From: Candidatus Woesearchaeota archaeon
GTDB lineage: Archaea > Nanobdellota > Nanobdellia > Pacearchaeales > GW2011-AR1
DNA length: 51,526 nt
Direction of reading: 5' to 3'
Assembly: GCA_964408125.1 (NCBI GenBank)
Contig: CAYOYC010000001.1
Location: 1-51,526, forward strand
Each line of letters starts with the position of its first letter. Position 1 is the stretch's first letter. Below are positions 13,306 to 38,339 of this stretch, piece by piece. Below the pieces are notes generated by a model. That model did not search any database and was not told the DNA's origin. It saw only the letters and a program-made list of their open reading frames with translations. Position numbers and translations under genes: made by a program.

Positions 13306-13306
13306 A

Positions 13307-14172: not shown

Positions 14173-14174
14173 TT

Positions 14175-14477
14175 ATGGACATATGCCCTAAGTGTGGTTT
14201 ACCGATAGCGGCGTGTGTTTGTGAAGATATAGCAAAAACCCAACAACAGGTTGAGGTTAAAACCGAACGAAGGAGATTCGGTAAGTTCGTAACGTTGGTT
14301 TACGGATTGGAAGGAGTCGATTTAAAAGAAATCGCTAAAAGGCTTAAAAACAAGCTTGCTTGCGGTGGAACAGTCGCCGGTAAGGTAATTGAGCTTCAGG
14401 GAAATCACATCGGGAAGGTAAAACCCGTTTTGGTTGAATCTGGATTCACAGAATCGCAAATAATAGAAAAAAAATAA
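14175..14477 (+). CDS. sui1: translation initiation factor aSUI1 (eIF1 homologue)
   Basis: N-terminal CPKCG...CVC knuckle, RRFGKFVTLVYGL, LKNKLACGGTV. Confidence 0.88.
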   Translation: MDICPKCGLPIAACVCEDIAKTQQQVEVKTERRRFGKFVTLVYGLEGVDLKEIAKRLKNKLACGGTVAGKVIELQGNHIGKVKPVLVESGFTESQIIEKK

Positions 14478-14478
14478 A

Positions 14479-14883
14479 ATGGTAAAAGAAAAAATAACAA
14501 AGATTGGAAAGAAAGCGCATACTAGTGTAAGCTCTGACGAACAAAAAGTCAAAATTAGCTGTGCGGATAAAAAGTGTCCGTTCCATGGTAGCGAAGCTGT
14601 TAAGCTTAGAGGAAGAACTTTTGAAGGAGAAGTAATTGTAAAACATTCCAATAGAGTAAAAATACAGTTTGAAAGATTTTTGTACGATAGAAAATATGAA
14701 AGATTCGAAAAAAGAAGAACAAATTTACATGCTAGATTACCAGATTGTTTGAAAGAACAAATACAAGTTGGAGATTGGATTGAAATTAAAGAATGTAGGC
14801 CGTTAAGCAAAATTATGCATTTTTATGCAACTAAAAAAATAAGAAGCAAAACAGAATCAGCGCAAGGAGTTAAAGAACAATGA
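14479..14883 (+). CDS. rps17: 30S ribosomal protein S17 (uS17)
   Basis: RGRTFEGEVIVKHSNRVKIQFE, GDWIEIKECRPLSK. Confidence 0.9.
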   Translation: MVKEKITKIGKKAHTSVSSDEQKVKISCADKKCPFHGSEAVKLRGRTFEGEVIVKHSNRVKIQFERFLYDRKYERFEKRRTNLHARLPDCLKEQIQVGDWIEIKECRPLSKIMHFYATKKIRSKTESAQGVKEQ

Positions 14884-15281
14884 AAGCAGTAACAGGAAAC
14901 GTAACACGTGGATTAAATATTGGAAGTGTATTAGAGGCTGCAGATAATAGCGGAGCTAGAATTGTAAAAATAGTTTCTGTAAAGGGTGGAAGATCACGTA
15001 AGGGAAGACAGGTTTTTGCTAGGGTTGCAGATTGGGTAAAGGTTTCTGTTAGAAAGGGAGACCCAAAAATGAAGGGTGAAGTATTTGATGCTGTTATAAT
15101 CAGACAAAAGAGGTCGTGGAAAAGACCGAATGGAGAAAATGTTTGCTTTTCAGATAATGCCGTTGCTTTATTAAAAGATGAAAAAGGAAACCCTAAGGGG
15201 ACACAAATTAAAGGACCTGTCGCGAGAGAGGTACAGGAAAGATGGAAAGAGGTATCTAAAATAGCGTCTACTGTTTATTAA
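14880..15281 (+). CDS. rpl14: 50S ribosomal protein L14 (uL14)
   Basis: LEAADNSGARIVKIVSVKG, AVIIRQKRSWKRPNGENVCFSDNA. Confidence 0.93.
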   Translation: MKAVTGNVTRGLNIGSVLEAADNSGARIVKIVSVKGGRSRKGRQVFARVADWVKVSVRKGDPKMKGEVFDAVIIRQKRSWKRPNGENVCFSDNAVALLKDEKGNPKGTQIKGPVAREVQERWKEVSKIASTVY

Positions 15282-15282
15282 A

Positions 15283-15687
15283 ATGAAAAAAGAATTCACA
15301 ACAAAATGGAGAGAAAGTAAACAACCTAGAAAGCAAAGAAAGTATTTACATAATTTGCCATTGCACTTGAAACAAAAACTAATGGGTGCCGCTTTAGATA
15401 AGGATTTGAGGAAGCAATATGGAATTAGGAGTATTGAAGTAAGAAAGGGCGATGAAGTTTGCATAATGAGAGGAAAATTTAAGAAGAGAGTTGGAAAGAT
15501 TGTTGATGTAGACTTAAAGAATTCAAGAATAGCAATTGAGAATATCCAAAATACGAAAAGAGATGGAAATAAAGTTAATGTTTGGATACATTCCTCTAAA
15601 GTTAAAATAAAAAAATTGGACGATAATGATAAAATGAGACTTACAATTAAACAAGGAGAAAATAAAAATGCACAAGACAAGAAGTGA
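15283..15687 (+). CDS. rpl24: 50S ribosomal protein L24 (uL24)
   Basis: KOW motif VRKGDEVCIMRGKFKKRVGKIVDV; synteny. Confidence 0.9.
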   Translation: MKKEFTTKWRESKQPRKQRKYLHNLPLHLKQKLMGAALDKDLRKQYGIRSIEVRKGDEVCIMRGKFKKRVGKIVDVDLKNSRIAIENIQNTKRDGNKVNVWIHSSKVKIKKLDDNDKMRLTIKQGENKNAQDKK

Positions 15688-16312
15688 ATTACCAGCTAAT
15701 TGGCCATTGCCAAGAAAGGGAACAAAATACTTTGTTAGATCTAGTCATTCTGCTAGCGACGGAATTCCATTACAAATCGTTTTAAGGGACATATTAAAAA
15801 TTGGAAGAACCAGAAAAGAGGTTCGATTTATGTTATTGAATAAGGAGATAAGTGTCAATTCAAAAGTGAGAATAAATAAGAAATTCCCAGTTAGACTATT
15901 TGATATAGTAACACTTGGAAAAACTGGAAAAAGTTATAGACTAAACATACACGGAAAGAGGGTCAACTTTGAAGAAGTTAGCGCTAAAGACTCTAATAAA
16001 AAAGTAGTAAAAATTATTGGAAAGGTTTTGATTGGAAAAGACAAATACCAAATGAATCTTGAAGATGGCTCTAATTTTTTAGTAAAGGAAAAGTTTGTTA
16101 CTGGAGACAGCGCCGTTATTAACTTAAAAGAAAATAAAATTGAAAAAATAATTTCGATGAAGGAAGGAGTAGGAGTGTTGGTTGTCTCTGGAAAACATTC
16201 AGGCAAAGAGGGAAAAATAAAGGAAATTCTTGCTGATAATAAGGGTTATTTAATTAAATTTGATGACGGAGAAGTATTGCTTCCTGAAAAGACATTACTT
16301 GCAACTAACTAA
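15668..16312 (+). CDS. rps4e: 30S ribosomal protein S4e (eS4)
   Basis: WPLPRKGTKYFV, IVLRDILKIGRTRKEVRFML, C-terminal KOW-like GKHSGKEGKI. Confidence 0.9.
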   Translation: MHKTRSELPANWPLPRKGTKYFVRSSHSASDGIPLQIVLRDILKIGRTRKEVRFMLLNKEISVNSKVRINKKFPVRLFDIVTLGKTGKSYRLNIHGKRVNFEEVSAKDSNKKVVKIIGKVLIGKDKYQMNLEDGSNFLVKEKFVTGDSAVINLKENKIEKIISMKEGVGVLVVSGKHSGKEGKIKEILADNKGYLIKFDDGEVLLPEKTLLATN

Positions 16313-16839
16313 TGGAAAACAAAAAACAATCAAACATTATGAGAACACCTAGAATTGAGAAAGTAGTTTTAAATGTTGGTGGAGTTGCAGAAAAGTTAGA
16401 AAAAGGATTTATATTACTGCAAAAATTAACTGGGAAAAAACCTGTTAAAGTTGCTGCGACAAAAAGAATACCTACATGGGGAGTAAGACCGGGGCTACAG
16501 GTTGGTACAAAGGTTACATTAAGAGGCGAAGATGCTGAAGCTTTCATTAAAAGGGTATTGCCTGCTGTTAATAACACAATAAAGGCAAAGCAAATCAGGC
16601 CAAACTTTGTTTCATTTGGAATACACGAATATATCGAAATTCCTGGTATAGAATATATTAGAGAAGTTGGTATCATGGGATTTGAAATGACTATTGTTTT
16701 CGTAAGAACTGGAAGAAGAGTCGCTTTAAAAAAGGTAAAAAGAGGAAGGGTCAGAAGACAAAATGTAACGATAGAAGAAATAGAACAAATTATGCAAGAT
16801 AAATTTAAAACTAAAATACTAAGGAGGATAAAAAACTAA
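16312..16839 (+). CDS. rpl5: 50S ribosomal protein L5 (uL5)
   Basis: [36 protein letters not shown]. Confidence 0.92.
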
Positions 16840-16840
16840 A

Positions 16841-17071
16841 ATGACAGCAAGCGATTGGAGAAAAATAACTAAACAGCTTAGGGTAAAGCCAGCTAAGTTA
16901 AAGAAATTTCTAAAGCATAACAAGCCAAAAGATAGAAAGTTTGGCATAAGCGTAAATAAATGCGAAAGATGCGGCAGACAAGGAAGCCATGTCGGACAAT
17001 ACGGCATAGAACTTTGTAGACAGTGCTTTAGAGAGATTGCTGTTGATCTAGGATTTAAAAAATACTCATGA
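16841..17071 (+). CDS. rps14: 30S ribosomal protein S14 (uS14, zinc type) with N-terminal extension
   Basis: CERCGRQG...[18 protein letters not shown]; AGGAGG SD upstream. Confidence 0.9.
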
Positions 17072-25090: not shown

Positions 25091-26098
25091 ATGAATCCGT
25101 TATTATTCATAGCAATTGTAATTAGTTTCGTAGTAACTTTCTTCGGTTTAATCAGTTGGATAAAGAAATGTAAAAAAATAGGTCTGCTTTGGGAAGATAT
25201 GAATAAATTCGGCAAGCCGAAAAACGTTGCTGGTTCTGGAGGGATAGTTGTTTTGATTGGATTCATACTTGGTGTTTTATTTTATATCGCTATTCAGACC
25301 TTTATACTTGGGCAGACAAATTCTATTACTATTAAGATATTCGCCTTACTATCTGTTGTGGCCATAGTTGGCATAACCGGATTAGTTGATGATTTCTTAG
25401 GATGGCATCATGGTGGTTTGTCTGTGGGCGTAAGGTTGGTTATGGCTTTAATGGCCTCTATACCTCTGATTGTTATTAATGCTGGTGATTCTTCCATCTC
25501 CCTTCCTTTCTTGGGAAATATCGATCTGGGTTTATTTTATCTAGTTGTACTAATTCCGGTTGGGATAGCAGCAACTACTACTCTCTATAATTTTTTAGCG
25601 GGTATAGATGGATTAGAAGCTGGGCAGGGAATTTTAGTTGTGGGTTTTTTAAGTTATGTTGCCTATGCGAATAATGCTGCTTGGCTTGCTATAATAGGGT
25701 TATGTATGGTCGCTTCTCTTTTGGCGTTTTGGTTTTTTAATAAAAATCCTGCTAGGGTTTTTCCAGGAGATGTACTAACATATGCTGTCGGTGGATTGAT
25801 TGGGACAATGGCTATATTAGGAAATTTTGAAAAAATTGCTTTTATTGTATTCATTCCTTATATAATAGAAATGGTTTTGAAACTTCGTGGTGGGATGAAT
25901 CCGCCGAGAAAACAATCTTTTGGAATACCTCAGAAAGATGGTAGTTTAAAGATGCCGTATGAGAAAGTTTATGGGTTGACACATTTTTCCATGTGGTTCT
26001 TGTTTAAGTTTAAAGAGAAAGTTTACAAGAATGATGTTGTTTATTTGATTTACATAATACAGATAATTTTTATATTGATCGGATTTGCGATGATGTGA
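25091..26098 (+). CDS. GT4-family polyprenyl-phosphate N-acetylhexosamine-1-phosphate transferase (AglH/WecA/MraY-like)
   Basis: GLVDDFLGW, NFLAGIDGLEAG, PARVFPGDV. About 10 TM segments. Confidence 0.85.
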   Translation: MNPLLFIAIVISFVVTFFGLISWIKKCKKIGLLWEDMNKFGKPKNVAGSGGIVVLIGFILGVLFYIAIQTFILGQTNSITIKIFALLSVVAIVGITGLVDDFLGWHHGGLSVGVRLVMALMASIPLIVINAGDSSISLPFLGNIDLGLFYLVVLIPVGIAATTTLYNFLAGIDGLEAGQGILVVGFLSYVAYANNAAWLAIIGLCMVASLLAFWFFNKNPARVFPGDVLTYAVGGLIGTMAILGNFEKIAFIVFIPYIIEMVLKLRGGMNPPRKQSFGIPQKDGSLKMPYEKVYGLTHFSMWFLFKFKEKVYKNDVVYLIYIIQIIFILIGFAMM

Positions 26099-26154: not shown

Positions 26155-27726
26155 ATGGTTAAGAGTGACTTGAATAAAATTTTAGATGAGGGAAAATCTA
26201 TTATAAAAAATAAAAAGTTTCAAATTGGATTGACTATTATTTTATTTTTAGCCATATTAATTAGTTCGACTAGTTTGAGAATGAGTAATTTGCCGAATTT
26301 GGTTGATTCAACTACTGGGTTATATACTTCAAATGATTTGGATTCGCTTTATTTTTATAGGATGGCTGAAACTCAACTTGAATTAGGATATTTGCCAGAG
26401 GTTGATGTAATGAGAGCTCCTGGATATAACTCTAGTTGGGTTCCTGAGATTATCGATAATGTTCTAATATGGAACTATAAAATATTAAATTTCTTTAATT
26501 CGGATATTAGTTTTAATTATGCTTCTACGATTTCTGCTCCTATAATTTTTGCAATATTATTGATTGCGTTTTTCTTTTTATGTCTTTTGTTAACTAAGTC
26601 AAAAACTGCTAGTTTAATTGCTTCTGCATTTTTAGCTTATTCACCTGCATTTTTATTTAGAAGTGTTGCTGGATTCTATGACCACGATCATTTAGGTGTT
26701 TTGGCTGTTATATTACTGGTTATTGCTTCTGTGTTTGCATTGAAAAGATTTGAAAAAACATGGAAAGAAAGCGTTTTATGGGGGGTTGTGATTGGATTTT
26801 TCACTTCGCTTGTTTTCGTTTCTTGGGGCGGTGCGATAACTTTTGTGTTTTTATTTTTACCGATGGCTTTGTTTTTCCATTATTTAACTGTAGATGATGA
26901 TAAAAAAATGAAGTTTATTATTTTTTATGCCTTATGGATTTTGACAATGATTATTTTTACTCCTATTATTGGTGGTTCTATGAGAAATATGATTGGAAGA
27001 GTAATGGACTCACAAGGTCTTGCGGTTCTATTTGTTTTTGGGTTTTCAATAGTAGATCTTTTATTTATTAAATTTAAGAAAAATTTAAAATTTATTAATG
27101 AAAAATATGAAAAATTATATTCTTTAGGAATTACAGCTGTTTTGGGATTGGTTGGTTTAATGGCTATTGGTAAACATCCTATAAAAATGCTTCAGAGTGT
27201 TTGGGCTTCTCTTATTTATCCTTTCTTTGGAGAGTTTGGAGGTAGACTGAGCTCTACTGTTGCTGAAAATGCACAACCCTACTTAGTTGATTTAATGAAT
27301 CAGACTGGGAAGATGGTGTTTTGGTTATTTTTGTTTGGACTCGTTTTTGTTGGTATAGGTTTTGCTAAAAATGTTAAAAGCTTGAAAAATAGAATTTATC
27401 TGAGCGTTAGTGCAGTTGTTGTTTTAATTGCGATATTATGTTCTAGAATATCTGGTTCGCATATATTAAATGGAGAAAATATGCTTAGTCAAGCTATTTA
27501 TCTTGTTGGCGCTTTGGGGTTTTTTGCTTGTTTACTTTATGTTTATAATAAAGAAAAATTTAGCATATCTGGAGAAAGTGTTTTATTATTTTCAATAGCT
27601 TTAGCTTCAGTGATAAATGCTCGTGCGGCAGTTAGAAGTTTCTTTTTAATTACACCATTTACTTGTTTGATTGCTGGTTATTTTATTGCACAAATAGTAG
27701 AAAAATTGGAGGTTAGAAATGAATAA
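26155..27726 (+). CDS. aglB: oligosaccharyltransferase AglB/STT3, N-terminal multi-TM part (split gene, part 1)
   Basis: EL1 motif SNDLDSLYFYRMAE, second acidic motif GFYDHDHLG, and an EL5 TIXE/SVSE-like STVAENAQP. It lacks the WWDYG domain. Confidence 0.75.
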   Translation: MVKSDLNKILDEGKSIIKNKKFQIGLTIILFLAILISSTSLRMSNLPNLVDSTTGLYTSNDLDSLYFYRMAETQLELGYLPEVDVMRAPGYNSSWVPEIIDNVLIWNYKILNFFNSDISFNYASTISAPIIFAILLIAFFFLCLLLTKSKTASLIASAFLAYSPAFLFRSVAGFYDHDHLGVLAVILLVIASVFALKRFEKTWKESVLWGVVIGFFTSLVFVSWGGAITFVFLFLPMALFFHYLTVDDDKKMKFIIFYALWILTMIIFTPIIGGSMRNMIGRVMDSQGLAVLFVFGFSIVDLLFIKFKKNLKFINEKYEKLYSLGITAVLGLVGLMAIGKHPIKMLQSVWASLIYPFFGEFGGRLSSTVAENAQPYLVDLMNQTGKMVFWLFLFGLVFVGIGFAKNVKSLKNRIYLSVSAVVVLIAILCSRISGSHILNGENMLSQAIYLVGALGFFACLLYVYNKEKFSISGESVLLFSIALASVINARAAVRSFFLITPFTCLIAGYFIAQIVEKLEVRNE

Positions 27727-28897
27727 CAAAAATAAAATTTACTACTGGATTGCGTTGGTTTTAGTTTTAGGGGTATCTCTCATTGCTCTATTTGGGAATC
27801 CTTTATCTAAAACTCCTGGAATGTATCAGATAACTTCTGCGCAGGCACAATATATTGGAGCTTCGGCTAACGTTCAGTGGCAGAATGCGATGGCTTGGAC
27901 GAGAAATAATACTGGTAAAGACGATATTTTTGTTCATTGGTGGGATTATGGTTATTTTGTGCAAACGCTTGGCGAGAGGCCTAGTGTGACGGATGGAGGG
28001 CATGCTGGCGGACAGGATGGAAATCATTATATCGGAAGATATATCTTAACTACTCCGAATCCAAAGACAGCTCTTAGTTATATGAAAACATGGAACGTTT
28101 CTTACTTATTGATTGATCCAACTGAAATGGGCAAATATGGTGCATTTTCTAAGATTGGAAGTAATGACTCTTGGGATCGAATTTCTGCTGGAATATTTGG
28201 TGGAGAATCTGATGAGGCGCAAATACAGGAAACTGCAAATGGATTGACTCGAATTTATCAACTAGGCGGATGTGTTGATGAAGATATCTCATATATTGAT
28301 AATAATAGTAAAGTATTTTTGCCTGGAATTACCATAAGCCGAACACAACAAATGCAATGTAATTCTTATGTAATTGGAGTAATTGTTGAATTTAAAGATA
28401 AAAATGGACAAACTAGTATTGAACAGCCCATGGGTGTGTATTATTATAACAATAAACAATATAGAATACCAATAAAGAATGTTTTCTATAATGGACAAAT
28501 GATTAGTTTTGAAAAAGGAATTGATTCGGTAGTTTATTTGATTCCAAAAGTAGATGATAAGAGTGGAAAAATTGATCTTGTTGGAGCGATGATATATCTT
28601 TCTCCAAGAACGTTTAATAGCTTAATGGGAAGACTTTACATCTTGGGAGATTATTATAACGAATATCCAACACTAAAAGAAGCAATATTTGAAGATGATC
28701 CGGTTGTTAGTTATTTTAAGCAATTTGCTGGAGGAGTATTGAATGAATTTGTTTGGTATGGTGGAATAAGAGCTCCGTTGAAAATTTGGGAGGTAAATTA
28801 TCCAGAGGGAACGCCAGTGCATCGGGAGTTTGTTTTTGGACGTTCTGAGGGGGTTATTTTTGGAGGGCTAGATCATTTATTTAAGGAAGATGGATAA
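27719..28897 (+). CDS. aglB: oligosaccharyltransferase AglB/STT3, last TM plus WWDYG C-terminal domain (split gene, part 2)
   Basis: One TM, then IFVHWWDYGYFVQTLGERP. GGAGGT SD lies 5 nt before the ATG, which overlaps the part 1 stop (ATGAATAA). Confidence 0.75.
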   Translation: MNNKNKIYYWIALVLVLGVSLIALFGNPLSKTPGMYQITSAQAQYIGASANVQWQNAMAWTRNNTGKDDIFVHWWDYGYFVQTLGERPSVTDGGHAGGQDGNHYIGRYILTTPNPKTALSYMKTWNVSYLLIDPTEMGKYGAFSKIGSNDSWDRISAGIFGGESDEAQIQETANGLTRIYQLGGCVDEDISYIDNNSKVFLPGITISRTQQMQCNSYVIGVIVEFKDKNGQTSIEQPMGVYYYNNKQYRIPIKNVFYNGQMISFEKGIDSVVYLIPKVDDKSGKIDLVGAMIYLSPRTFNSLMGRLYILGDYYNEYPTLKEAIFEDDPVVSYFKQFAGGVLNEFVWYGGIRAPLKIWEVNYPEGTPVHREFVFGRSEGVIFGGLDHLFKEDG

Positions 28898-29825
28898 AAC
28901 CCATATCTCTCTTTGTTGGGAAGATAAAGATGGTAATTATTCCAAATTCCCCGCCACAACCATTCTTTCTATCTTACAAAACAATAATAATATATTTTTG
29001 CACTTAATTACGCCGGGGATATCATCTGAAAATGAATTTAAAATAAAAAAAATTATAAAAAAAAATAATACCTCTTTTAAATTTTATAAATCTTTTAATT
29101 CAGAACAAAAAAAACTACTAAATATTATCAAAGAAAATAATAAATCCTCTTTTGGAATCGGTGCGTATCTTAGGCTTTTAATTCCCACTCTCGTTTCTAA
29201 AAAAATAAAAAAGATAATTTATATTGATTCAGACATTATAGTAAACGGCAATATAAATGGACTATGGAAAATAGATTTATTGGATAATTTTATTGCGGGA
29301 GTTAATCACGAAAATCATCCTAAAATTAAAATTTGGAAATTAAAACAATATATAAATTCTGGAGTTATGCTTATCAATTTAAAAGAAATTAGAAAAATTA
29401 ATTTAAGTAACTTTGTTCAAAAAACAATAAAAAGACATTCCAATGATTTTTATTTTACTGGTCTAAATTCATGTGCTGACCAAGACATACTCAATTTGAT
29501 GTTTAATGGCAAGATAGCTCTTTTACCTGAAACTTATAATTTTCAAGTTAGAAGAACATATCGAGAAGGGCAAATTATTTACCACTATGGCTGGCTATAC
29601 AAACCGTTCAGATTTAAACCCGTTTTCATAGACAAAGAATATAAAGACTTATATTTCCACTATTTTGACAAAACACCTTGGGCCGGATGGAGACCTAAAT
29701 GGAATTTCAAAAAAGGATTGATGACTAGCAGTGTATACTCTTTTTCTATAAAAATATTAAAAATTACGAAATTAGAATATCTCATAAAAAGGTTATTGAA
29801 TAAAAAAATAAAAAAAAGAATTTAG
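28890..29825 (+). CDS. GT8-family glycosyltransferase
   Basis: YLRLLIP, IIYIDSDIIV (DxD), INSGVMLINL, DQDILN. Confidence 0.8.
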   Translation: MDKTHISLCWEDKDGNYSKFPATTILSILQNNNNIFLHLITPGISSENEFKIKKIIKKNNTSFKFYKSFNSEQKKLLNIIKENNKSSFGIGAYLRLLIPTLVSKKIKKIIYIDSDIIVNGNINGLWKIDLLDNFIAGVNHENHPKIKIWKLKQYINSGVMLINLKEIRKINLSNFVQKTIKRHSNDFYFTGLNSCADQDILNLMFNGKIALLPETYNFQVRRTYREGQIIYHYGWLYKPFRFKPVFIDKEYKDLYFHYFDKTPWAGWRPKWNFKKGLMTSSVYSFSIKILKITKLEYLIKRLLNKKIKKRI

Positions 29826-30814
29826 AATTCCTCGGATTTTTCCGAAATTTTTTTTATATAAAAACTACTAGACAGTTTTCTTTCCAATTCTCTTGTAAAC
29901 ATCTTGGAATATTTTTTATACCACTTCTTTAAATTTTCTTCACTAATTTCAGAAATATTATTGATAATAACAACCGGAAATTTCCTATGTAAACCATCCA
30001 TGGCATTATTTACTGTTTCAATTATTGGAATTTGGCCGAGTAATAAGGTTTCCCACGTTCTGTGACAATCTAGACCTGCTCCAACTGGTGAAAACCCGAA
30101 GGCATATTTTGCCTGCTCTTTCCACATTTTGCATCTTGGAAGTTTTTCTTTCTGGAAATAAATTAAAGGATTATTAAGTAATTTTATATAAAGATCAGAC
30201 CTTCTCTTAGATGTTCTATTTAAATGAAAATTGGCAAATATCTTCATATTTTTACCCAAAACTTCTTTGATATTTATAATTTCTCTCTCTTGCCTTTCTG
30301 GACTTTTTATATTTTCACCAAAAAACTGAGAAGTGAAAAGAAAGTGATAATCAATTCCAATTGGTATTGTGGTAATTTTATTGCTTTCTAAATCATTATT
30401 CTGTGCAAACCAATGATATAAATATTTATTATTTAACAATTTTCTATATTTTGAAGTTGAAAAATCTGAATCTCCGGTTATTAAAACAAACTTCCAACTT
30501 ATCTTAGGGAGGAATTTCTCTATGAAATAATCCATAAAATCCAAGCTAACGTAAATTGTTTTTGGTTTTGTTTTTACTATATTTTTATAAGACAGGTATG
30601 CTAGTGGCTTTCCCAATACTGATCTAAAAAATATCTGCTTTGGATAATATATTGGGTAAACATCACAAGACATTGCTATTTTTTTATTCCAAATAAATTC
30701 TATATTTTTTATATATTTTTTCTTATCTTTTTCTAAGAATGTAAAATAGAAAAATGATGGCAACGCCTTTGCCCTTAGCCAAATTTGGGAAAATTTCATT
30801 TGAAGATAACCCAA
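29822..30814 (-). CDS. putative glycosyltransferase (exostosin/GT47-like C-terminal motif)
   Basis: FGFSPVGAGLDCHRTWETLLLGQIPII resembles the GT47 C-terminal signature. Its position inside the glycan island supports the call. Family assignment is uncertain. Confidence 0.4.
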   Translation of the reverse strand: MGYLQMKFSQIWLRAKALPSFFYFTFLEKDKKKYIKNIEFIWNKKIAMSCDVYPIYYPKQIFFRSVLGKPLAYLSYKNIVKTKPKTIYVSLDFMDYFIEKFLPKISWKFVLITGDSDFSTSKYRKLLNNKYLYHWFAQNNDLESNKITTIPIGIDYHFLFTSQFFGENIKSPERQEREIINIKEVLGKNMKIFANFHLNRTSKRRSDLYIKLLNNPLIYFQKEKLPRCKMWKEQAKYAFGFSPVGAGLDCHRTWETLLLGQIPIIETVNNAMDGLHRKFPVVIINNISEISEENLKKWYKKYSKMFTRELERKLSSSFYIKKISEKSEEF

Positions 30815-31410
30815 TCGTTCCCTAGTCCAAAAATAATATTTTTTATTATTTTATTTGAGAATTTATCCACTGCTCTCTTAACGTCTGGATAACCAGAACC
30901 ATAATCATGCCCGGAGATTATTCCACCATTATTAACTAAGGGGTAATATTCTCTTATGTCTTCATCTATATATGGGGAGAAATGATTACCATCTATATAT
31001 AAGAAATCCACTTTTTCCCTAATGTCTTTTATGGCCTCTTTTGAAAATTTCTCTATCCAAACTATCTTGTGTTTGAATGGTTCTAGTAGTTTGTGCGCAC
31101 TTATTTTTGCACTTTCTACGCTAGAACAATAAATATCTTTCTTATATTCTTCATATTTTTCATATGGGTCAATTAAATATATTTTTTATATATTTAAATT
31201 TTTTAAAATCTGATATGTGTGCTCTCCTTTGAAAACACCTATCTCACATGCAATTATTTCTTTGTCAATAAAAAGTTTTTCTGCCTCGATTACTGCTTGT
31301 CTTTTTTTTAGTTCGCTTAATTTTCTTAAAGAAATTCCAAAAAAACCAGAAGAGAGTGTTAGGTGAAAACCAATTAAATGAAAAGGGTAGTTTATTATTC
31401 TTTTTAGCAT
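30796..31410 (-). pseudogene. class I SAM-dependent methyltransferase (Methyltransf_24/TylF-like) interrupted by one in-frame TAA
   Basis: Track ORFs 31186..31410 and 30796..31011 and the stretch between them are all in one frame: ...EIGVFKGEHTYQILKNLNI*KIYLIDPYEKY...REKVDFLYIDGNHFSPY...GGIISGHDY. The only disruption is TAA at 31186-31188. Confidence 0.7.
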
Positions 31411-31440
31411 ATATCCTAGATTATTTGTTTATTTAAATAG

Positions 31441-32439
31441 TTAACGCATAACATCTTTTAAAAAAATTTTTAATTCTTCTTCTTTGGATCTTATTTTTCT
31501 TCTATTTTTAGATGTCATACATTCGCGATTCACAAATTCTAAATATTTTTTATCATCCTTATCTAATTCTATTATTTTTTGAATCATTTTAACATATGAA
31601 TTTTTGAAGTCCTCAAAGTTAATGAATGAACTAGTATTAAAATATTCTTTTAGATTTGGCGCTCCACGATAAATCGGAATTGCCCCACCTAGCATTACAT
31701 TTGGTAATTTTTCTGTTATATACTCATTTTCAAAAGAATTTTCAAAACAAATCACAAATTTATACTGCGAGTAAAATTTCGGATTGTCTGCCCAAGTCTT
31801 TGGCAGTTTTGAATTGTCTGCATTAGCTAGATTTGTTTTCCCATAAATATCTACTTTTTTATATCCTGAGAGTTTTTTTGCAAAATCTATTCTATCAAAT
31901 GCTGATTCATTAGATATAATTATACAACAAAATTTATTTGGCACTCTTGATATTTTCTTCTTATTAAACAATTTGTTTATATTATCTAGAATATACTTAA
32001 CCTGTAAAAAATATGGAAGATTTAGGATATTTTTGCCCTTTATATCATTGCTAATAATGGCATATTCTCCTTGTGGGGGGTTTTTAGCAATATGTTTTAT
32101 GCGATTTAAATAGTCCCTCCTCATGTTCCCTAATTTTATATCCAATAGCTTTCTTGGTAAAATTTTATTTAATATGCTGAAATTTATCTTAGTTCTTTTT
32201 GTGATATATTCTAAAACCTTAAATAAATTGACCTTGTAGTATAAATTTTCACCAGAAACCAATATTTTCTTGGGTGAATTTTTGTATTCTTTTGATAGTT
32301 TTTTATGCACATACTCAATTACTAAATTGGGGTTATTTTTTGCTTCTATAAAATCTTTTGAGAGATATTTTGCAATAAAACTATTATTTAGGGGTTGCAA
32401 ATTATACGGATTTGAATAATAGATTTTTAGTGAACTCAT
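31441..32439 (-). CDS. GT10-family alpha-1,3/4-fucosyltransferase
   Basis: YKFVICFENSFENEYITEKLPNVMLGGAIPIYRGAPNLKEYFNTSSFINFEDFKN closely parallels the Helicobacter FutA-type motif YKFxLCFEN...YVTEK...IPIYWG...DFN..SF.N..DFKN. Confidence 0.85.
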   Translation of the reverse strand: MSSLKIYYSNPYNLQPLNNSFIAKYLSKDFIEAKNNPNLVIEYVHKKLSKEYKNSPKKILVSGENLYYKVNLFKVLEYITKRTKINFSILNKILPRKLLDIKLGNMRRDYLNRIKHIAKNPPQGEYAIISNDIKGKNILNLPYFLQVKYILDNINKLFNKKKISRVPNKFCCIIISNESAFDRIDFAKKLSGYKKVDIYGKTNLANADNSKLPKTWADNPKFYSQYKFVICFENSFENEYITEKLPNVMLGGAIPIYRGAPNLKEYFNTSSFINFEDFKNSYVKMIQKIIELDKDDKKYLEFVNRECMTSKNRRKIRSKEEELKIFLKDVMR

Positions 32440-32460
32440 TATATTCTAAATAGGGAAGGG

Positions 32461-32468
32461 TTTTTAAA
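32461..32468. promoter_or_regulatory. single symmetric TATA box (gggTTTTTAAAtc) shared by two divergent genes
   Basis: Box centre about 32465 is 26 nt from the minus-strand ATG at 32439 and 25 nt from the plus-strand ATG at 32490. The intergenic spacer is only 50 nt. Confidence 0.45.
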
Positions 32469-32489
32469 TCTTAAATAATAAAAAATATA

Positions 32490-33146
32490 ATGGAATATGA
32501 CGCAAAATATCACAAGGGGGTTCATTCTAATATCATATTTGATAGTGAATTATACAAACTAAAGGGATTGGTTTACTTTAGAAAAAATTTAAAAAACATA
32601 AAATGTTTAGATAAAAAAACAATTGTAGAGTATGGCTGTGGAATGGGACAAAACATTTACCCAATAAGAAAGTTAACTGCCTGGGGCTATGATATATCTA
32701 ACTATGCTTTAAACTTCTGCAAGAATCTTGGAATAAATATAATCTCTGACAAAAAAATAATACCCGCATCAGACATAGTCTTATGCAATCACGTATTGGA
32801 ACACCTAGAGTGCCCACTGGAGCACCTTAAATTCATTAAGAGTAAATTAAAAAAAGACGGGATAATTGTGTTGGTGCTTCCAAAAGAAAAACACGAAAAA
32901 ACAAATTTAAAGCCAGATAAGATTAATTATCATCTCTATTCCTGGAATTTTAGAACAATAAATAATCTTCTAGATGTGGCTGGATTTAAAGTTATTGATA
33001 ATAGCGAGTTTGGAGAGGTGGGTTATAACAGGTTAAGATTCTTGGCGAAAATAAACTTTGAAGTTTATTTTCAAATGATAAAATTTTTAGGTTTTTTTGT
33101 AGATAAAAAGGAAATTAGGGTTATAGCAACTCCGAAGAATGACTAA
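32490..33146 (+). CDS. class I SAM-dependent methyltransferase
   Basis: VEYGCGMGQN (motif I), DIVLCNHVLEHLECP, DGIIVLVLP. Confidence 0.8.
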   Translation: MEYDAKYHKGVHSNIIFDSELYKLKGLVYFRKNLKNIKCLDKKTIVEYGCGMGQNIYPIRKLTAWGYDISNYALNFCKNLGINIISDKKIIPASDIVLCNHVLEHLECPLEHLKFIKSKLKKDGIIVLVLPKEKHEKTNLKPDKINYHLYSWNFRTINNLLDVAGFKVIDNSEFGEVGYNRLRFLAKINFEVYFQMIKFLGFFVDKKEIRVIATPKND

Positions 33147-33153
33147 AAAAGTT

Positions 33154-33858
33154 TTATTTTTTAGCTATAACTAAAAAATTTTCCACATATAGATTCTTGG
33201 TTTTAAATTTTGAGAATATCAACCCTAAAATATTTAGCAGAAATATTATTGGGAAAAATAGGAATCTGATAACCTTTGGCAATTTTTCTCCCAATTCGTT
33301 TAAAAAAAATTGTCCAAACAAAAAAAAGATAGAATAGTTACCCATTATTTTTTCCGAACGCAATATTTTAAAGCCCTTACTCTCAAACAGATTCTTTGCA
33401 CCGTTTGGAGTAAATCTTCTAAAATCGTTTGGTAACTCATGCAATGGCCAAATAAAGGGAAATGAGATGAGTACTTTCCCCTTGGGCCTTAAAACTCTTT
33501 TAATCTCTAAAATAAGCAGATCCAAATCCCTCACGTGTTCTATAACTTGGAAAAGAACAATTGTATCAAAAGAGCTATCTTTAAGGGGGATGTTAATCCC
33601 ATCAAAAAATAAATCAATTTGTTCATTTAGGTGATTATGCCCGGGGTTTTCTATATCAATTCCTACATATCTATCTACTTTACCAAATAATTCTCTGTAC
33701 GGTTTTCTCCCACACCCAATATCTAAAACATCCCCCACCACAAGGCCTTTATATTTTTTAACTTTTTTTAAGAGCTCCCTTCTATCTAAATAGTTTTTTT
33801 TAAAAACAAGAGAAACAAGTCCTGGATAAAATTCTTCACGTGCTAAATACTTTTTCAT
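33154..33858 (-). CDS. class I SAM-dependent methyltransferase with C-terminal TM segments
   Basis: VLDIGCGRKPY, FDTIVLFQVIEHV, PKGKVLISFP; hydrophobic tail. Confidence 0.8.
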   Translation of the reverse strand: MKKYLAREEFYPGLVSLVFKKNYLDRRELLKKVKKYKGLVVGDVLDIGCGRKPYRELFGKVDRYVGIDIENPGHNHLNEQIDLFFDGINIPLKDSSFDTIVLFQVIEHVRDLDLLILEIKRVLRPKGKVLISFPFIWPLHELPNDFRRFTPNGAKNLFESKGFKILRSEKIMGNYSIFFLFGQFFLNELGEKLPKVIRFLFFPIIFLLNILGLIFSKFKTKNLYVENFLVIAKK

Positions 33859-34754
33859 TTTTCCATTCTTATGAGTTTTATTATTTTTAGTCTATATATA
33901 AAAAATCTTGCTAATTTAAACAAAAATCCCATAATGTTTTTATTTTTATACAAAAAACCATTATCTATTTTTTTTCTTATAACCACATAATTCTTTTTGT
34001 CTGGGAAAACATACTTATAATCCCAGGGTTTAATTTTACCCACATAATGAATAATTTTTGGTTTTTCTATTAGTTCTTCATACTCCTCTTTTGACAAATT
34101 CATTTCTTTCCCTCTTAAATCATAAATTGTTCTCTGTCTGTTCCAGTTTAAAGGCAATTTATTCCAATCTTTGCTAAAAACATCATTCAATAGCTCTTGG
34201 TCTCCCAAAGTTAGATTTGTTCCCTTAATCGCCAAATAATCTTCTACCTTTTTGGAATAATCAAGAAGATTCCATCTACCACAATCTATCAATAATACTC
34301 CTGCATTAAAATCTCTTTTTTTTTGTAGATACTTAATCTGATAATCATATACTGCTCCGATTGCTTTTTTGTTTAGGTTTTCTGAAAAAATCTCTAATAT
34401 GTCTCCTTCTACCACCAAATCACAGTCTAAATACAAAACTTTCTTTCTTTTTTCTAATAAAGGTATCTCTAGTCTATAGTAAGTAGCCTCGCTAACATGT
34501 CCCCAAAGCTTGGCATTGGAATACTTCTTTCTATTTGGCTTAATAAATTTTAGTTCGGCCTTGTTTTTTTTAATAAATTTCATTAATCTTTCCTTGTTTT
34601 TTTCACTAATTCCGCCATCAAAAATAAAAAAGGCAATTTTGCTATTATCTGAGCAATTTTCAATTATGGAATAAATGGTTACAAATAAGTGTATAAAATA
34701 ATTATTATCTGAAGATAAAAAAATCTTATACCTATCAAAAGCTTCCTTTTTCAT
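33855..34754 (-). CDS. GT8-family glycosyltransferase
   Basis: ATYYRLEIP, VLYLDCDLVV (DxD), FNAGVLLIDC, GDQELLN. Confidence 0.8.
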   Translation of the reverse strand: MKKEAFDRYKIFLSSDNNYFIHLFVTIYSIIENCSDNSKIAFFIFDGGISEKNKERLMKFIKKNKAELKFIKPNRKKYSNAKLWGHVSEATYYRLEIPLLEKRKKVLYLDCDLVVEGDILEIFSENLNKKAIGAVYDYQIKYLQKKRDFNAGVLLIDCGRWNLLDYSKKVEDYLAIKGTNLTLGDQELLNDVFSKDWNKLPLNWNRQRTIYDLRGKEMNLSKEEYEELIEKPKIIHYVGKIKPWDYKYVFPDKKNYVVIRKKIDNGFLYKNKNIMGFLFKLARFFIYRLKIIKLIRMEK

Positions 34755-34795
34755 CCTTCCAAAAACTCTATAAACTATTTAAAACTAATTGTTTT

Positions 34796-35806
34796 ATGCA
34801 AAAACCAAAAATAAGCATTATTATGCCCGTTTATAATTCTGAAGCATATATGGAGAAATCAATTAACTCTATTCTAAATCAAACATTAAAAGAACTAGAA
34901 CTTATATGTATAAATGATACGTCAAAAGACAATTCCTTAAAAGTCTTGCAAAAAATAAGTAAAAAAGACAAACGTCTTATAATACTAGACAATCAAAAAA
35001 ATTTAGGACCAGGAGGATCTAGAAATATGGCCATCTTAATAGCAAAGGGAGAATTTGTTATGTTTGTTGACTCTGATGATTGGCTAGAGACAGATGCCTG
35101 TGAAAAATTATATAATTTGGCAACTTCTGAAAAATCTGATTTTGTTTATATTAGACCAAAAATTATCTATGAAAACAAGACCATCTTGGATAAAAGATTG
35201 TTTAGAGGAGACGAAATAAAAAACAAAGAAACCGTATTTAAGAAAAGCCTAAGAAGAAAAATCGCATGGGCACCATGGACAAAGATGATAAAAAGAAACC
35301 TAATCACAAAAAACAATATTCTCTTCCCTCAAATACATATTGCGGAAGACATGGTTTTCTCTGTAAAGGTATTACACTTTGCAAAAAGGATATCTGAATG
35401 TAGGGAGTATCTTTACAATTATTTAATGAGAGAAGGATCTTTAATGTCTTATAAAAATTCTCAAAGAAGAATAGAAAACTATCTAGAGAGTATTAAATTG
35501 ATAAGAGATTTTATGAATAAAAACAATATTTTCCAAAAATATCAAAAAGATTTTATCTACTTCAAGTTTTATACCTATTTGGCTATTTATGGGGTTATGC
35601 ATCATACAAAAGAAAAAATAGACAAAAGAAAATATGGACAAATTATAGAAAACGACACAGATTTTAGGATGGTAAAGATACTGAGTTTGGGCACAATCGA
35701 TTCTGTTATATTAGGTATAATTTTGATCAAATTACATCTGTTTAATGGCGTCTTTTTTATAAGAGAAAAAATTAGGCAATTTAAAAAAATTGGAAGAAAG
35801 AGATAG
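34796..35806 (+). CDS. GT2-family glycosyltransferase
   Basis: ISIIMPVYNSEAYMEKSINSILNQT, INDTSKDNS, FVDSDDW. Confidence 0.85.
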   Translation: MQKPKISIIMPVYNSEAYMEKSINSILNQTLKELELICINDTSKDNSLKVLQKISKKDKRLIILDNQKNLGPGGSRNMAILIAKGEFVMFVDSDDWLETDACEKLYNLATSEKSDFVYIRPKIIYENKTILDKRLFRGDEIKNKETVFKKSLRRKIAWAPWTKMIKRNLITKNNILFPQIHIAEDMVFSVKVLHFAKRISECREYLYNYLMREGSLMSYKNSQRRIENYLESIKLIRDFMNKNNIFQKYQKDFIYFKFYTYLAIYGVMHHTKEKIDKRKYGQIIENDTDFRMVKILSLGTIDSVILGIILIKLHLFNGVFFIREKIRQFKKIGRKR

Positions 35807-35866: not shown

Positions 35867-36445
35867 ATGAACTACAAAGTATTTGTATTATTTGCCCTTG
35901 GATTTTTAATATATTCTGGCTTTATTTCTGCTGATACAAATGGAACTTTTATTGGAAATGGCACAGCCACCTTGGTTAATACTACTGCGGAATTTGATGT
36001 AGTGGCTAATGTTTCTGCTACGCAATGGTGGGCAGAAGTTTCGTTAAATACTAGTGAAATTGATTTTGGATATATTGAAATAAACAATTTTTCCAGAAAA
36101 TCTTATCAAATAGCTGCGAGGGGGAATGTTGATATAAAAGTTGTTCCTACTCTTCTTGATCATACGGATGCTATCTTCTCAAATCTATACTTTTCCAGAA
36201 CAACCACTGGGTGGAAAAAAATAGGAAACGAGGATTTGGGGCTTATATTTAATCTCACCCAAAACAAGGGGTTGTGGACCGTTCTCGGTGCATCTGATGC
36301 CATGAAAAACCTAAGCGCTAGTGATAAGGGGGTTCAAAACATTCAATTAGACTTAGCAGGCTTTAATGAAATAATACCGTTTGATCAAGAATATAGAAAT
36401 ACGGTAAAGTTTGTAATTTTGCCAAACTGGGCAAGCGTTAATTAG
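35867..36445 (+). CDS. secreted beta-rich protein, dense in N-glycosylation sequons
   Basis: Signal-peptide-like N-terminus. 8 N-x-S/T sequons in 192 aa (NGT, NGT, NTT, NVS, NTS, NFS, NLT, NLS). Confidence 0.6.
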   Translation: MNYKVFVLFALGFLIYSGFISADTNGTFIGNGTATLVNTTAEFDVVANVSATQWWAEVSLNTSEIDFGYIEINNFSRKSYQIAARGNVDIKVVPTLLDHTDAIFSNLYFSRTTTGWKKIGNEDLGLIFNLTQNKGLWTVLGASDAMKNLSASDKGVQNIQLDLAGFNEIIPFDQEYRNTVKFVILPNWASVN

Positions 36446-36452
36446 TTTTAAT

Positions 36453-37001
36453 ATGAAAGCTGTTTTATTTTTAAGTATCTTTATTGCCATTATATTTTTT
36501 ATCTCTAATACACTTGCTATTAAAATATCTCCAACACGGCAGGAATTAATTATGAACCCCTACGAAACAAACTGCACAAATATCTGGGTTTTGCCAGAGG
36601 ATAATTATATTATTAGCTCTAACTGGTCTTATGATGGAAAGGGCAATCTGGAAAAATATAACTTTAGCACTGAAAAAATTAAATTGTCTATGAATTATAG
36701 CCATATATCTGAAGGGAAATATGAAATATGTTTTACACCAAAAAGAGGTGGAAATTTTTCTGGGATTATTTATTTTTACTCCGAAAAAAATATGGTTGAA
36801 ATTGGAACATGGATAGAATTAAGGGTTGAAAGCAAAACGGCCATAGAATCAATTTCTCTAATTACTGGAAATGCCATGAGAGATACTGGCAACTTAAATC
36901 TTAGCCTGGGGCTTGTCTTTTTGTTACTTGTTATAACTCTTCTACTGGCTATCAGAAGATCTTTTCGGCGCACTCGGCTTATTAAAGATAAACATCCCTA
37001 A
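36453..37001 (+). CDS. secreted protein with C-terminal TM anchor, sequon-rich
   Basis: Signal peptide, 6 sequons in 182 aa, and a C-terminal hydrophobic helix followed by RRSFRRTR. Confidence 0.6.
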   Translation: MKAVLFLSIFIAIIFFISNTLAIKISPTRQELIMNPYETNCTNIWVLPEDNYIISSNWSYDGKGNLEKYNFSTEKIKLSMNYSHISEGKYEICFTPKRGGNFSGIIYFYSEKNMVEIGTWIELRVESKTAIESISLITGNAMRDTGNLNLSLGLVFLLLVITLLLAIRRSFRRTRLIKDKHP

Positions 37002-38339
37002 ATAAATAATTCTACTTAAGATGGTTGCTATAACTGCCCCAAAAACGGCAGAATAGCCTCCGTAGGGCAATAAATTTGTGATTAACGTATAATTTAGCAA
37101 TATGTTGATCAGAGTCGAAATTATTAGCACTTTCGCCACGAAATAACTTTTGCCTTCTGAAATATAAAAACTACTATATATCCCTATTATTGGATCAATT
37201 AAGAACAAAATAGAGAGCGCTTGCAGTATTTTTACAGCAGGTAAATAGTTTACATTATAGATTATACCAACTACAAAAGAGGCTACAAAATAGGTGAATA
37301 CGATCCCGGCCAACGCGAGCGGAATCGTGACTATTATAGATTTTTTTAAACCGTTTAATAATCTGGCACCTTTAAGTCTGGAAAAAATAGGAAAAAGAAC
37401 CCCTCCGAAAGAGATAATTACTATTCCCGAGCTTAAAAGCGCGAATGCGGCCTGATAATAGGCAATAAATGTTGCTTCTACAAATTTACCTAGCATAATT
37501 ATATCTATGTACCCAAAAAACGTACCCGAAAGCGCAGTAACTGTTAATGGTAGAATGAATCTGTTTATTTCTTTTTTCTGATTTTTATTTAGTTTCTTAC
37601 CGTGATATCTTTTTAAATTTAGTTTCAAAAAAAGTAATGCAAAAAAATAACATAAAGATAGCGACATAAACAATACGAATAATGTAAATTGTGTTGAATA
37701 TGCAAGAGAATAGATTATTGCTATTGGAACGATTATTAATCTAAGTATTTGGAATATTAGCTCTCTGTAAAATGTTACCCTGAAATTATTTTCTGCCTGG
37801 AAAAAGCCCGAGATAAAACCTAGCAAACTCGTACCAATTAAATAAAGAGATCCTGCTAGTAACGCTAAAAAAATAGGCTTGTTATAATAGCTTGCGATAA
37901 AATACGAAGAAATAATCAAAAATAAAGCTACTATGGAAGTTAATGTAATTCTTAATTTTGCTAAATAAACAATATACCCCCTTGAGTTTTTATTATATTT
38001 AGAAAGATACCGAACAAGCGCATTCCCTATCCCCAGGTCTGTAAATCCCGCAAATAACAATATTGTTGAAAGAGAAAGTGAATAAAGACCGAACAACTCT
38101 GGAGTCAGAAGTGGTTTTAATTCAATAGAAAATAAACTAAATAATTTTACTAAAAATGTAGATCCTATAATTACTGCTGTAAAAATTAAAGCTCCTATTT
38201 TTGCGATAGCACTAGTTAAAAAAGAATAAATGGAGTTTTTAACGGCCATTCCTGTATATCCTGAGAAATCTCTATGTAATAATCTCTTTGTGATTCCGAA
38301 CGCTTCTTTAGCAAATATCTCCCTCATTCTATAACCCAC
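36942..38339 (-). CDS. oligosaccharide flippase (MOP/Wzx-type polysaccharide biosynthesis protein)
   Basis: 465 aa, about 12-14 TM segments, with a Wzx-like N-terminus (FSGYTGMAVKNSIYSFL). Confidence 0.7.
   Translation of the reverse strand: MGYRMREIFAKEAFGITKRLLHRDFSGYTGMAVKNSIYSFLTSAIAKIGALIFTAVIIGSTFLVKLFSLFSIELKPLLTPELFGLYSLSLSTILLFAGFTDLGIGNALVRYLSKYNKNSRGYIVYLAKLRITLTSIVALFLIISSYFIASYYNKPIFLALLAGSLYLIGTSLLGFISGFFQAENNFRVTFYRELIFQILRLIIVPIAIIYSLAYSTQFTLFVLFMSLSLCYFFALLFLKLNLKRYHGKKLNKNQKKEINRFILPLTVTALSGTFFGYIDIIMLGKFVEATFIAYYQAAFALLSSGIVIISFGGVLFPIFSRLKGARLLNGLKKSIIVTIPLALAGIVFTYFVASFVVGIIYNVNYLPAVKILQALSILFLIDPIIGIYSSFYISEGKSYFVAKVLIISTLINILLNYTLITNLLPYGGYSAVFGAVIATILSRIIYLGMFIFNKPSAPKRSSDSQ

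Follow-up and report, generated by a model that had tools for sequence, protein, structure and literature searches.

Variable gene clusters lying beside aglB, the gene of the archaeal oligosaccharyltransferase (OST), were described in Haloferax and other haloarchaea, where they go together with a serotype-like diversity of the cell surface (Shalev et al. 2018, PMC5867893; review PMC11407970), and the AglB tree of Haloferax was found to be incongruent with that of a housekeeping marker, which its authors read as horizontal gene transfer or xenologous displacement (PMC5867893). Here, we describe a related case from a Candidatus Woesearchaeota archaeon of the Pacearchaeales, in a stretch of 51,526 nucleotides (hereafter the window; GenBank assembly GCA_964408125.1, contig CAYOYC010000001.1, positions 1 to 51,526) that carries at 28890-35806 a cassette of eight putative glycan-tailoring genes. 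From gene order, trees and homologue searches, we hold it probable that, within a conserved N-glycosylation locus of archaeal type, this segment is the tailoring part peculiar to the species, that it is modular, and that it was replaced as a block together with aglB. As in the haloarchaeal agl clusters, glycosyltransferase (GT) and methyltransferase genes stand beside aglB, their content varies between species, and AglB is incongruent; unlike in those clusters, the host is a DPANN archaeon, GT8, GT10 and GT47-like proteins take the place of the GT2/GT4 Agl enzymes, the cassette has no nucleotide-sugar genes, and its composition signal lies only in amino-acid usage. Variable clusters beside aglB and incongruent AglB trees are, of course, already known, and this locus adds a Pacearchaeota/Woesearchaeota case; our literature search found no paper on this locus in either group.

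The O-antigen and capsule loci of bacteria, together with the so-called glycotype islands, offer a second comparison, in that conserved flanks around unrelated sets of glycosyltransferases, a modular mosaic, low G+C content (GC) and a Wzx-type flippase are shared with our locus, in which no integrase or att sites were seen. They differ in that the product encoded here is expected to go onto protein through the oligosaccharyltransferase and that there is no Wzy polymerase or chain-length regulator. This analogy had been drawn by a first-pass annotation made from the window's letters, and we find it apt, given the conserved flanks, the unrelated content and the incongruence between island and flanks. 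Closer in host biology is a low-GC island of predicted horizontal origin in a nanohaloarchaeon, Ca. Nanohalococcus occultus SVXNc, among whose genes are ones for glycosyltransferases and for sialic acid (PMC10266531); both cases concern a DPANN episymbiont, low GC and surface-glycan genes, and the SVXNc genome also has GT8, whereas the DPANN phylum and the genes differ and the paper reports neither adjacency to aglB nor its co-replacement (PMC10266531).

At the level of single enzymes, the cassette GT10 shares the Pfam GT10 catalytic domain with FutA/FutB of Helicobacter pylori and other GT10 fucosyltransferases, from which it differs in its archaeal host, its presumed dolichol-linked acceptor, the lack of a GDP-fucose pathway found in the genome, and the absence of poly-C and heptad-repeat phase-variation elements. 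We take the corresponding residues of the H. pylori enzyme to match the FENS...Y-x-TEK motif of the cassette GT10. The best match of the GT47-like protein among solved structures is A075L of the chlorovirus PBCV-1, at low sequence similarity; A075L, like the GT47-like enzyme, is presumably placed with fucose-type and methylating enzymes in an atypical N-glycan pathway.

DPANN archaea attach to host cells, with the cell surface as the interface. The locus suggests that DPANN archaea diversify their N-glycan coat by replacing whole cassettes, in the manner of bacterial O-antigens and of the agl clusters of haloarchaea, and it shows that even the oligosaccharyltransferase can be exchanged together with the glycan genes; the conserved frame from aglH to the flippase and SecDF would provide a handle for cataloguing "glycotypes" across metagenome-assembled genomes (MAGs) of Pacearchaeota and Woesearchaeota.

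The cassette, its relatives and the exchange of aglB

The genome under study (G000) is a MAG of 649 kb in 39 contigs, 82% complete, the genome of this DPANN host being roughly 0.65-0.8 Mb. Other genomes are labelled G0xx or G1xx and related loci Lxxx; locus L058 lies on the Woesearchaeota MAG contig CAZUKQ010000007.1. Gene families were assigned by a Pfam scan of the open reading frames (ORFs) of the window, and the order found was SpoIIM, aglH, aglB, the cassette, two sequon-rich secreted proteins (sec1 and sec2), a flippase, a small membrane protein, SecD and SecF, so that within 13 kb there are an AglH-like PF00953 protein, five glycosyltransferases, three methyltransferases, one of them broken, and a PF01943 flippase. 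The features from aglH to the end of the cassette are as follows (aa, amino acids; SAM, S-adenosylmethionine; LPS, lipopolysaccharide).

25091-26098, + strand: AglH-type polyprenyl-phosphate N-acetylhexosamine (HexNAc)-1-phosphate transferase, the predicted priming enzyme (PF00953, 102 bits)
26155-27726, + strand: N-terminal membrane part of aglB, 523 aa (PF02516, STT3)
27719-28897, + strand: C-terminal part of aglB, 392 aa, with one transmembrane helix (TM13) and WWDYG (PF21436)
28890-29825, + strand: GT8a, retaining GT-A enzyme like LPS alpha-galactosyl/glucosyltransferases, first gene of module A (PF01501, 124 bits)
29822-30814, - strand: GT47/exostosin-like glycosyltransferase (phmmer against PDB, E=2.3e-11 to A075L)
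30796-31410, - strand: Methyltransf_24 (MT24), pseudogene of a class I SAM methyltransferase, interrupted in frame by one TAA (31186-31188)
31441-32439, - strand: GT10, alpha-1,3/4-fucosyltransferase type (PF00852, 81.6 bits against a cut-off of 23.9)
32490-33146, + strand: MT23, SAM-dependent methyltransferase (Pfam Methyltransf_23), SAM motif I EYGCGMG
33154-33858, - strand: MT11, SAM-dependent methyltransferase (Pfam Methyltransf_11) with a hydrophobic C-terminal tail
33855-34754, - strand: GT8b, second retaining GT8 (PF01501, 152 bits), motifs DCD and HYVGKIKPW
34796-35806, + strand: GT2, inverting GT-A enzyme (PF00535, 120 bits), motif DSDD

The ORF list and Pfam agree with the eight genes in the order and on the strands first described, and the flank Pfam scan and sequon ranks agree with their placement between aglB on one side and the sequon-rich secreted proteins and flippase on the other.

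Part of the evidence comes from two trees. In that of SpoIIM plus AglH, the window is sister to G006 (98/96, 79% identity) inside its genus (100/98), and a position outside the other six congeners was rejected by the approximately unbiased (AU) test (p=0.011); AglH, 68-78% identical to same-genus genomes, nests within the genus clade in its own tree too and, on these trees, is the conserved, vertically inherited left flank. In the AglB tree, in contrast, the window is sister to L058 (100/100) and stands outside the clade of the other six congeners, genus monophyly being rejected (AU test, delta lnL 181, p=4e-107). The N part of AglB is 39-42% identical to congeners and 58% to L058, and AglB is nearer L058 than the congeners over its whole length. 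Besides this AglB, the L058 locus has a GT10 (60%), a GT2 (65%), gmd and a flippase (54%), with an AglH only 60% identical to that of the window. This incongruence between the aglB and flank trees argues for the exchange of aglB and cassette as one block, which would extend from aglB through the cassette, about 26155-35806, and possibly on through sec1/sec2. The horizontal assembly first proposed thus holds for at least one replacement, on the strength of AglB against SpoIIM plus AglH and not of GC, which is no evidence for it; its extent, given as 28890-35806 only, was too narrow, the replaced unit being larger and including aglB.

The content of the relatives points in the same direction. 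The flanks are syntenic in G005, G006 and G007 of the same genus, and beyond it in G009 and G031, and the gap between aglB and the flippase holds in these relatives 9-13 genes over 9-15 kb with no orthologue of the cassette genes. To the cassette, their gap genes give no more than family-level matches (26-48% identity over part of the length), and they comprise, by Pfam, GT4, GT2, methyltransferases, epimerases, a UDP-sugar dehydrogenase, deacetylases, a FemAB-like acyltransferase and a radical-SAM enzyme. With syntenic flanks around unrelated genes, the proposal of a variable cassette set within a conserved N-glycosylation locus is borne out, the variation seen being between species and genera, where the first description spoke of strains. 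Among 250 other genomes of the order, none was found with GT8a, one with the GT47-like gene and 17 with GT10, and only 2 of these 17 are close orthologues.

Parts of the cassette were found elsewhere in other combinations. Module A (GT8a, GT47-like, MT24, GT10) follows aglB directly in L048, with an intact MT24 and 52-66% identity over the four genes (GT8a, right after aglB, 54%; the GT47-like gene 64.5%), and past it come gmd, GT4 and other genes. Module B, GT8b divergent from GT2, is present in L050 (60.5% and 66%, respectively), and GT2 orthologues of 52-66% identity also occur in L023, L025, L057, L058 and L059. Thirteen DPANN loci with GT10 were compared; aglB lies within 10 kb in eight of them, and the five closest all share GT2 (52-65%), four of them also the GT47-like gene. 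Because such sub-modules recur elsewhere, the cassette is a mosaic of at least two modules, and the earlier suggestion that it was assembled from parts stands. The alignment-based scan for GT10 did return DPANN loci; single-protein scans for the GT47-like protein in genome contigs and for GT10 in viral contigs gave no match.

As for the origin of the genes, bacterial affinities had been named as something to look for, and these were not borne out, the nearest homologues being in Pacearchaeota and Woesearchaeota and any bacterial link at best a deep one. The closest relatives of GT10 (58-67%) all come from DPANN MAGs of these two groups, those in Gammaproteobacteria, Spirochaetota and Bacteroidota reaching only 30-46% identity, and the GT8s form small DPANN-context clades within the radiation of bacterial LPS-type GT8s, with a weak backbone; the GT8 and GT10 trees, with weak backbones and some long branches, do not separate bacterial from archaeal deep ancestry. 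We also considered whether GT8a and GT8b arose by a recent duplication inside the island and rejected it, since they are 30% identical and fall in separate clades (100/100 and 100/99) that are not sisters.

It could still be argued that there was no horizontal transfer, the cassette and aglB being ancestral to the family and vertically inherited, while relatives lost or replaced theirs and AglB evolved fast. This would suit the fact that several members of the family have GT10, GT2 and the GT47-like gene close to aglB, the native synonymous codon usage, and the identities of GT10 and GT2 to genome G073, which are unremarkable in the genome-wide distribution. The trees go the other way: the window is nested in the genus for SpoIIM plus AglH, where a basal position is rejected, the other six congeners share an AglB clade that excludes it, and vertical descent would need several independent and identical replacements among these congeners. 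Moreover, none of the 250 other genomes of the order was found to have GT8a. We give strictly vertical descent little credence. The sequence of events that we favour instead is that this lineage first separated from G006, the closest sampled congener, and then exchanged its cassette and aglB for those of a different DPANN lineage. This exchange would most likely have occurred by homologous recombination in the conserved flanks, which we infer because neither integrase nor tRNA target nor flanking repeats were found: the Pfam-annotated genes of cassette and flanks include no integrase or transposase, the closest tRNA is at 41446, and the repeat search at the cassette boundaries gave only AT-rich low-complexity chance matches.

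A chimera of assembly or binning, with a low-GC stretch from another organism, might be suspected in a MAG of 39 contigs with a region of atypical GC, and we judge it to be almost certainly wrong. The same arrangement is present in three assemblies; at 100% identity it is found on a 48-kb ENA contig and a 10-kb Logan contig, both spanning the junctions, and GC at third codon positions (GC3) and codon usage are native, with the same locus frame in relatives. Other copies in public assemblies are 99.97-100% identical, and in clusters at 90% identity, the flank and cassette proteins are singletons, save one AglH variant on a 3.2-kb contig ending inside aglB.

Base composition and protein make-up

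The low G+C content of the cassette, remarked on from the start, was confirmed by sliding-window GC: at 27.8%, against a genome mean of 33.5% (standard deviation 1.3%, same-size windows), it is the lowest of 4039 windows and the lowest 6.9-kb stretch of the MAG. The proteins are heavy in Asn, Lys and Ile, as had been noticed, all three being above the genome values (K 13.6% vs. 9.6%, N 7.8% vs. 5.4%, I 10.8% vs. 8.8%), and taken together they have an excess of K, N, I, Y and F and a deficit of A, G, V, T and E. A/T runs of at least 7 bases number 27, or 3.9 per kb vs. 1.27 per kb in the genome, a count that no other scanned window of the genome exceeds and that is some four times higher than in the shuffled cassette. 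Runs of at least 8 bases are about 7-fold enriched, and the longest has 9 bases; in phase-variable glycosyltransferase loci of the Campylobacter/Helicobacter type, it is homopolymer tracts within GT genes that vary in length in the population.

The GC dip does not mark the DNA as foreign. GC1 and GC2 are 0.335 vs. 0.423 and 0.249 vs. 0.325 for cassette and genome, and GC3 is 0.262 vs. 0.263 (p=0.89); the synonymous codon-usage distance of 0.064 compares with 0.065+-0.016 for random 7-gene sets, codon usage being indistinguishable from that of 7-gene sets taken at random (p=0.46) or as neighbours (p=0.62), and the dinucleotide signature is mildly atypical (top 3.4%). The dip is thus confined to the first two codon positions, as a result of proteins with much K, N, I, Y and F, and, with GC3 and codon usage native, it goes back to the kind of protein that this accessory class of genes encodes and not to recent foreign DNA. 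GT10 orthologues in two other genomes are equally rich or richer in these residues (F+Y+N+K+I 0.51-0.55), and their GC3 follows the host genome, with 0.14 in a genome of 26.6% GC and 0.32 in a locus with flanks of 34-40% GC. The low G+C is a composition typical of the accessory gene pool and not a recent arrival from a compositionally different donor, so that its use as a sign of foreign origin has to be given up; we suggest keeping this locus in mind as a caution, given that the GC dip here is protein composition and not recent foreign origin. Native GC and codon usage, taken together with an identical gene set in all relatives, had been named beforehand as the pair of observations that would speak against the island; the codon usage is indeed native, and the gene set in relatives is clearly not identical.

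Two side observations touch on composition. Other lowest-GC genes of the MAG, labelled by eye only, are nucleotidyltransferase/HEPN pairs, AbiEi/AbiEii-like genes, an AAA ATPase and a PIN-domain protein (G000 C3:26172-27223, C7:18488-19452, C22:4866-6481, C13:17047-18920 and C11:687-1124), and if these labels hold, the accessory and defence genes of this genome would generally be AT-richer through amino-acid usage. In L019 (G031:C2), at 11576-16937, a cassette in the same order has a GC3 of 0.14-0.19 and a GC of 26.5% vs. 32.9% in the rest of the locus, and this low GC3 is a truer compositional sign of foreign origin than any in the window.

The same features could in principle come from decay of the locus, in which selection would be relaxed and AT-biased mutation would load the proteins with K, N, I, Y and F, producing the GC dip. 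Two disruptions within 11 kb, namely the frame change of aglB and the nonsense codon of MT24, are what one would expect from decay, as is an amino-acid bias among the most extreme in the genome, together with the highest A/T-run count. It is at odds, however, with seven other full-length ORFs that have intact catalytic motifs, with TATA elements kept at the canonical distance, with GT10 orthologues that are just as rich or richer in F, Y, N, K and I in genomes where aglB is intact, and with the way aglB itself is split, in a cytoplasmic loop, with no residues lost and a GGAGGT just upstream of the second ATG. We regard decay as improbable and retain the accessory-gene make-up as the explanation of the dip.

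The predicted glycan pathway and its donor supply

Both GT8 proteins belong to the family by their PF01501 scores, above the cut-off of 24.3 bits, and by a DxD motif (DSD in GT8a, DCD in GT8b), and both best match LPS galactosyltransferase models; GT8a also has HYG..KPF, and its best NCBIfam match is LPS 3-alpha-galactosyltransferase, far under the cut-off. The GT47-like protein reaches 18 bits with Pfam RXYLT1_C, below the cut-off of 27, and it matches the chlorovirus "Exostosin GT47 domain" protein A075L in the phmmer search against PDB at the E-value listed above over about 215 residues; its true start is likely the ATG at 30799, directly after the methyltransferase stop. In GT10, the motif YKFVICFENS....YITEK is invariant in 28 homologues. 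None of the cassette glycosyltransferases has a signal peptide, and several have a hydrophobic C-terminal tail. The glycine-rich SAM motifs are present in both intact methyltransferases, while MT24, first described as broken, is so through a single codon: its about 205 codons form one continuous frame but for the TAA, at which an intact homologue has Lys, and this stop is the same in two other assemblies. Intact MT24 homologues are present in L013 (193 aa) and L048 (206 aa).

From family membership, AglH would prime dolichyl phosphate with HexNAc-1-phosphate, and the cytoplasmic, membrane-peripheral GT2, two GT8s, GT47-like enzyme and GT10 would extend the lipid-linked glycan. GT2 and the GT47-like enzyme would each be expected to add a beta-linked sugar, the two GT8s one alpha-Gal/Glc-type sugar apiece and GT10 an alpha-1,3/4-fucose-type cap. 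The two intact SAM methyltransferases would O-methylate sugars, the Wzx-type flippase would turn the glycan outward, and AglB would move it onto the N-x-S/T sites of the sequon-rich surface proteins.

The same glycosyltransferases might instead build another lipid-linked glycoconjugate, be it a glycolipid, an O-linked glycan or a capsule-like polymer, with the adjacency to aglB due to chance. To our knowledge, none of the archaeal N-glycosylation pathways characterised so far has been shown to use GT8, GT10 or GT47; a Wzx-type flippase also serves O-antigen and capsule units, and the LPS galactosyltransferase models that both GT8s match best would suit such a product. Set against this are the tight embedding of the genes between aglH/aglB and the flippase, the overlap of GT8a with the aglB stop and its lack of a TATA element of its own, the same placement in the eight GT10-carrying DPANN loci mentioned above, the co-replacement of aglB with the cassette, the lack, among the locus genes that Pfam annotates, of any for a Wzy-type polymerase or for chain length, and the highly sequon-rich substrate proteins encoded next door. 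We consider a product other than an N-glycan unlikely.

Several points nevertheless weigh against an N-glycan tailoring cassette exchanged as a block. The N-glycan assignment itself, made by sequence, rests on adjacency to aglB, aglH and the flippase, and the direction and number of transfers rest on few loci and on two marker genes beside the cassette. The genus is a deep one, with the AglH identities given above, and turnover may be slow in absolute terms. No signal of recent transfer was seen against G073, in whose genome-wide best-hit identity distribution (median 51.6%) the 63.8% of GT10 falls within the top 17% and the 56.5% of GT2 within the top 33%. With aglB split and MT24 broken, part of the pathway may be impaired. 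Finally, neither Gmd or Fcl nor a PF00483 sugar-1-phosphate nucleotidyltransferase was found in this 82%-complete MAG.

The last point concerns the donor of GT10. Its use of a GDP-6-deoxyhexose is supported by gmd (381-400 bits to TIGR01472), which sits in the same cassette in L048 and L058. In our genome the only sugar epimerase/dehydratase of the short-chain dehydrogenase/reductase (SDR) family is GalE-like (G000:C4:31664-32545, 204 bits, below the equivalog cut-off), and with no gmd or fcl, one SDR and no PF00483, the donor supply of GT10 is unexplained in the MAG as it stands. As a side observation, the organism may be unable to make most nucleotide sugars, while its locus encodes six glycosyltransferase steps. 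That a conserved GT10 seems to have no GDP-fucose to draw on is a small puzzle, and one open to test, on metabolic dependence on the host.

One may join all these threads in a single, more daring picture, in which oligosaccharyltransferase and glycan cassette would travel as one unit (glycotype switching), the product would be a fucose-type, O-methylated N-glycan made without an own GDP-fucose pathway and almost without nucleotide-sugar synthesis, the coat would depend on nucleotide sugars of the host, and the A/T tracts, the split aglB and the MT24 nonsense codon could reflect on/off variation of the coat. Taken as a whole, we think this conjunction is rather unlikely to hold.

The split aglB, transcription units and flanking genes

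The two halves of aglB overlap at ATGAATAA, by a one-base frame change in an A-rich stretch coding for a cytoplasmic loop, and no residues are lost relative to homologues. The GGAGGT in front of the second ATG is Shine-Dalgarno-like, and a TATA-like hexamer lies at -29 of the N part. A single aglB frame of about 900 aa was found in 36 relatives, including the closest AglB (L058, 916 aa), and the split is identical in two other assemblies. We also noticed that L139 (G001:C34), in a same-genus MAG that is 52% complete, seemingly has aglB in two frames (415 + 480 aa) with another break point, which could be an assembly error, and that the GT47-like orthologue beside GT10 in L025/L055 (G157, 8866-9890) is split into pieces of 77 and 265 aa, so that a gene is disrupted in a second cassette of this type.

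A genome-wide positional TATA profile, computed relative to start codons, showed TATA-like hexamers starting at -29 to -27, each of these positions being used by 19-27% of genes where the background is about 2%, and from this peak we conclude that leaderless transcription is the rule in this genome; most genes with a free upstream region carry such a hexamer there, which points to almost universal leaderless transcription. Five of the eight cassette genes (MT24, GT10, MT23, GT8b and GT2) have a TATA-like element at -30 to -27, with a chance expectation of about 6% per gene. No such element stands at that position in front of GT8a, the GT47-like gene or MT11, each of which overlaps the gene before it, so that the earlier statement that nearly every gene has its own leaderless promoter applies to five genes and was overstated for these three. 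GT8a is probably co-transcribed with aglB, as its overlap suggests, and MT11 and GT8b overlap by 4 nt. We infer from the gene layout the units [aglB-N, aglB-C, GT8a], [GT10], [MT24-pseudogene, GT47-like], [MT23], [GT8b, MT11], [GT2] and [sec1, sec2]. GT8b and GT2 diverge across a promoter region of 41 nt, with TATAAA at -27 of GT2. The remaining features are the other divergent promoter region and the right flank.

32440-32489, no strand: divergent promoter region of GT10/MT23, 50 nt, with one near-palindromic TATA at 32461-32469, TTTTTAAAT
35867-37001, + strand: sec1/sec2, a pair of small proteins, secreted or anchored in the membrane, with a very high density of N-x-S/T sequons
36942-38339, - strand: MOP/Wzx-type flippase candidate, right flank (PF01943 and PF13440)

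The TATA at 32461-32469 is equidistant, at -30 to -21, from the divergent starts of both GT10 and MT23. The sequon densities of sec1 and sec2 are 4.2 and 3.3 per 100 aa, ranking 4 and 12 among 582 ORFs, and this abundance makes them likely N-glycosylation substrates. They are only 31-38% identical to their positional counterparts in congeners, compared with 73-77% for SecD in G006 and G007, and may have evolved very fast or been exchanged along with the cassette. The flippase is 76% identical to that of G006, 54% to that of L058 and 45-46% to those of G007 and G005; it seems to have been exchanged within the genus too, since the window's SecD is 77% and 73% identical to that of G006 and G007, whose flippases stand at 76% and 45-46%.

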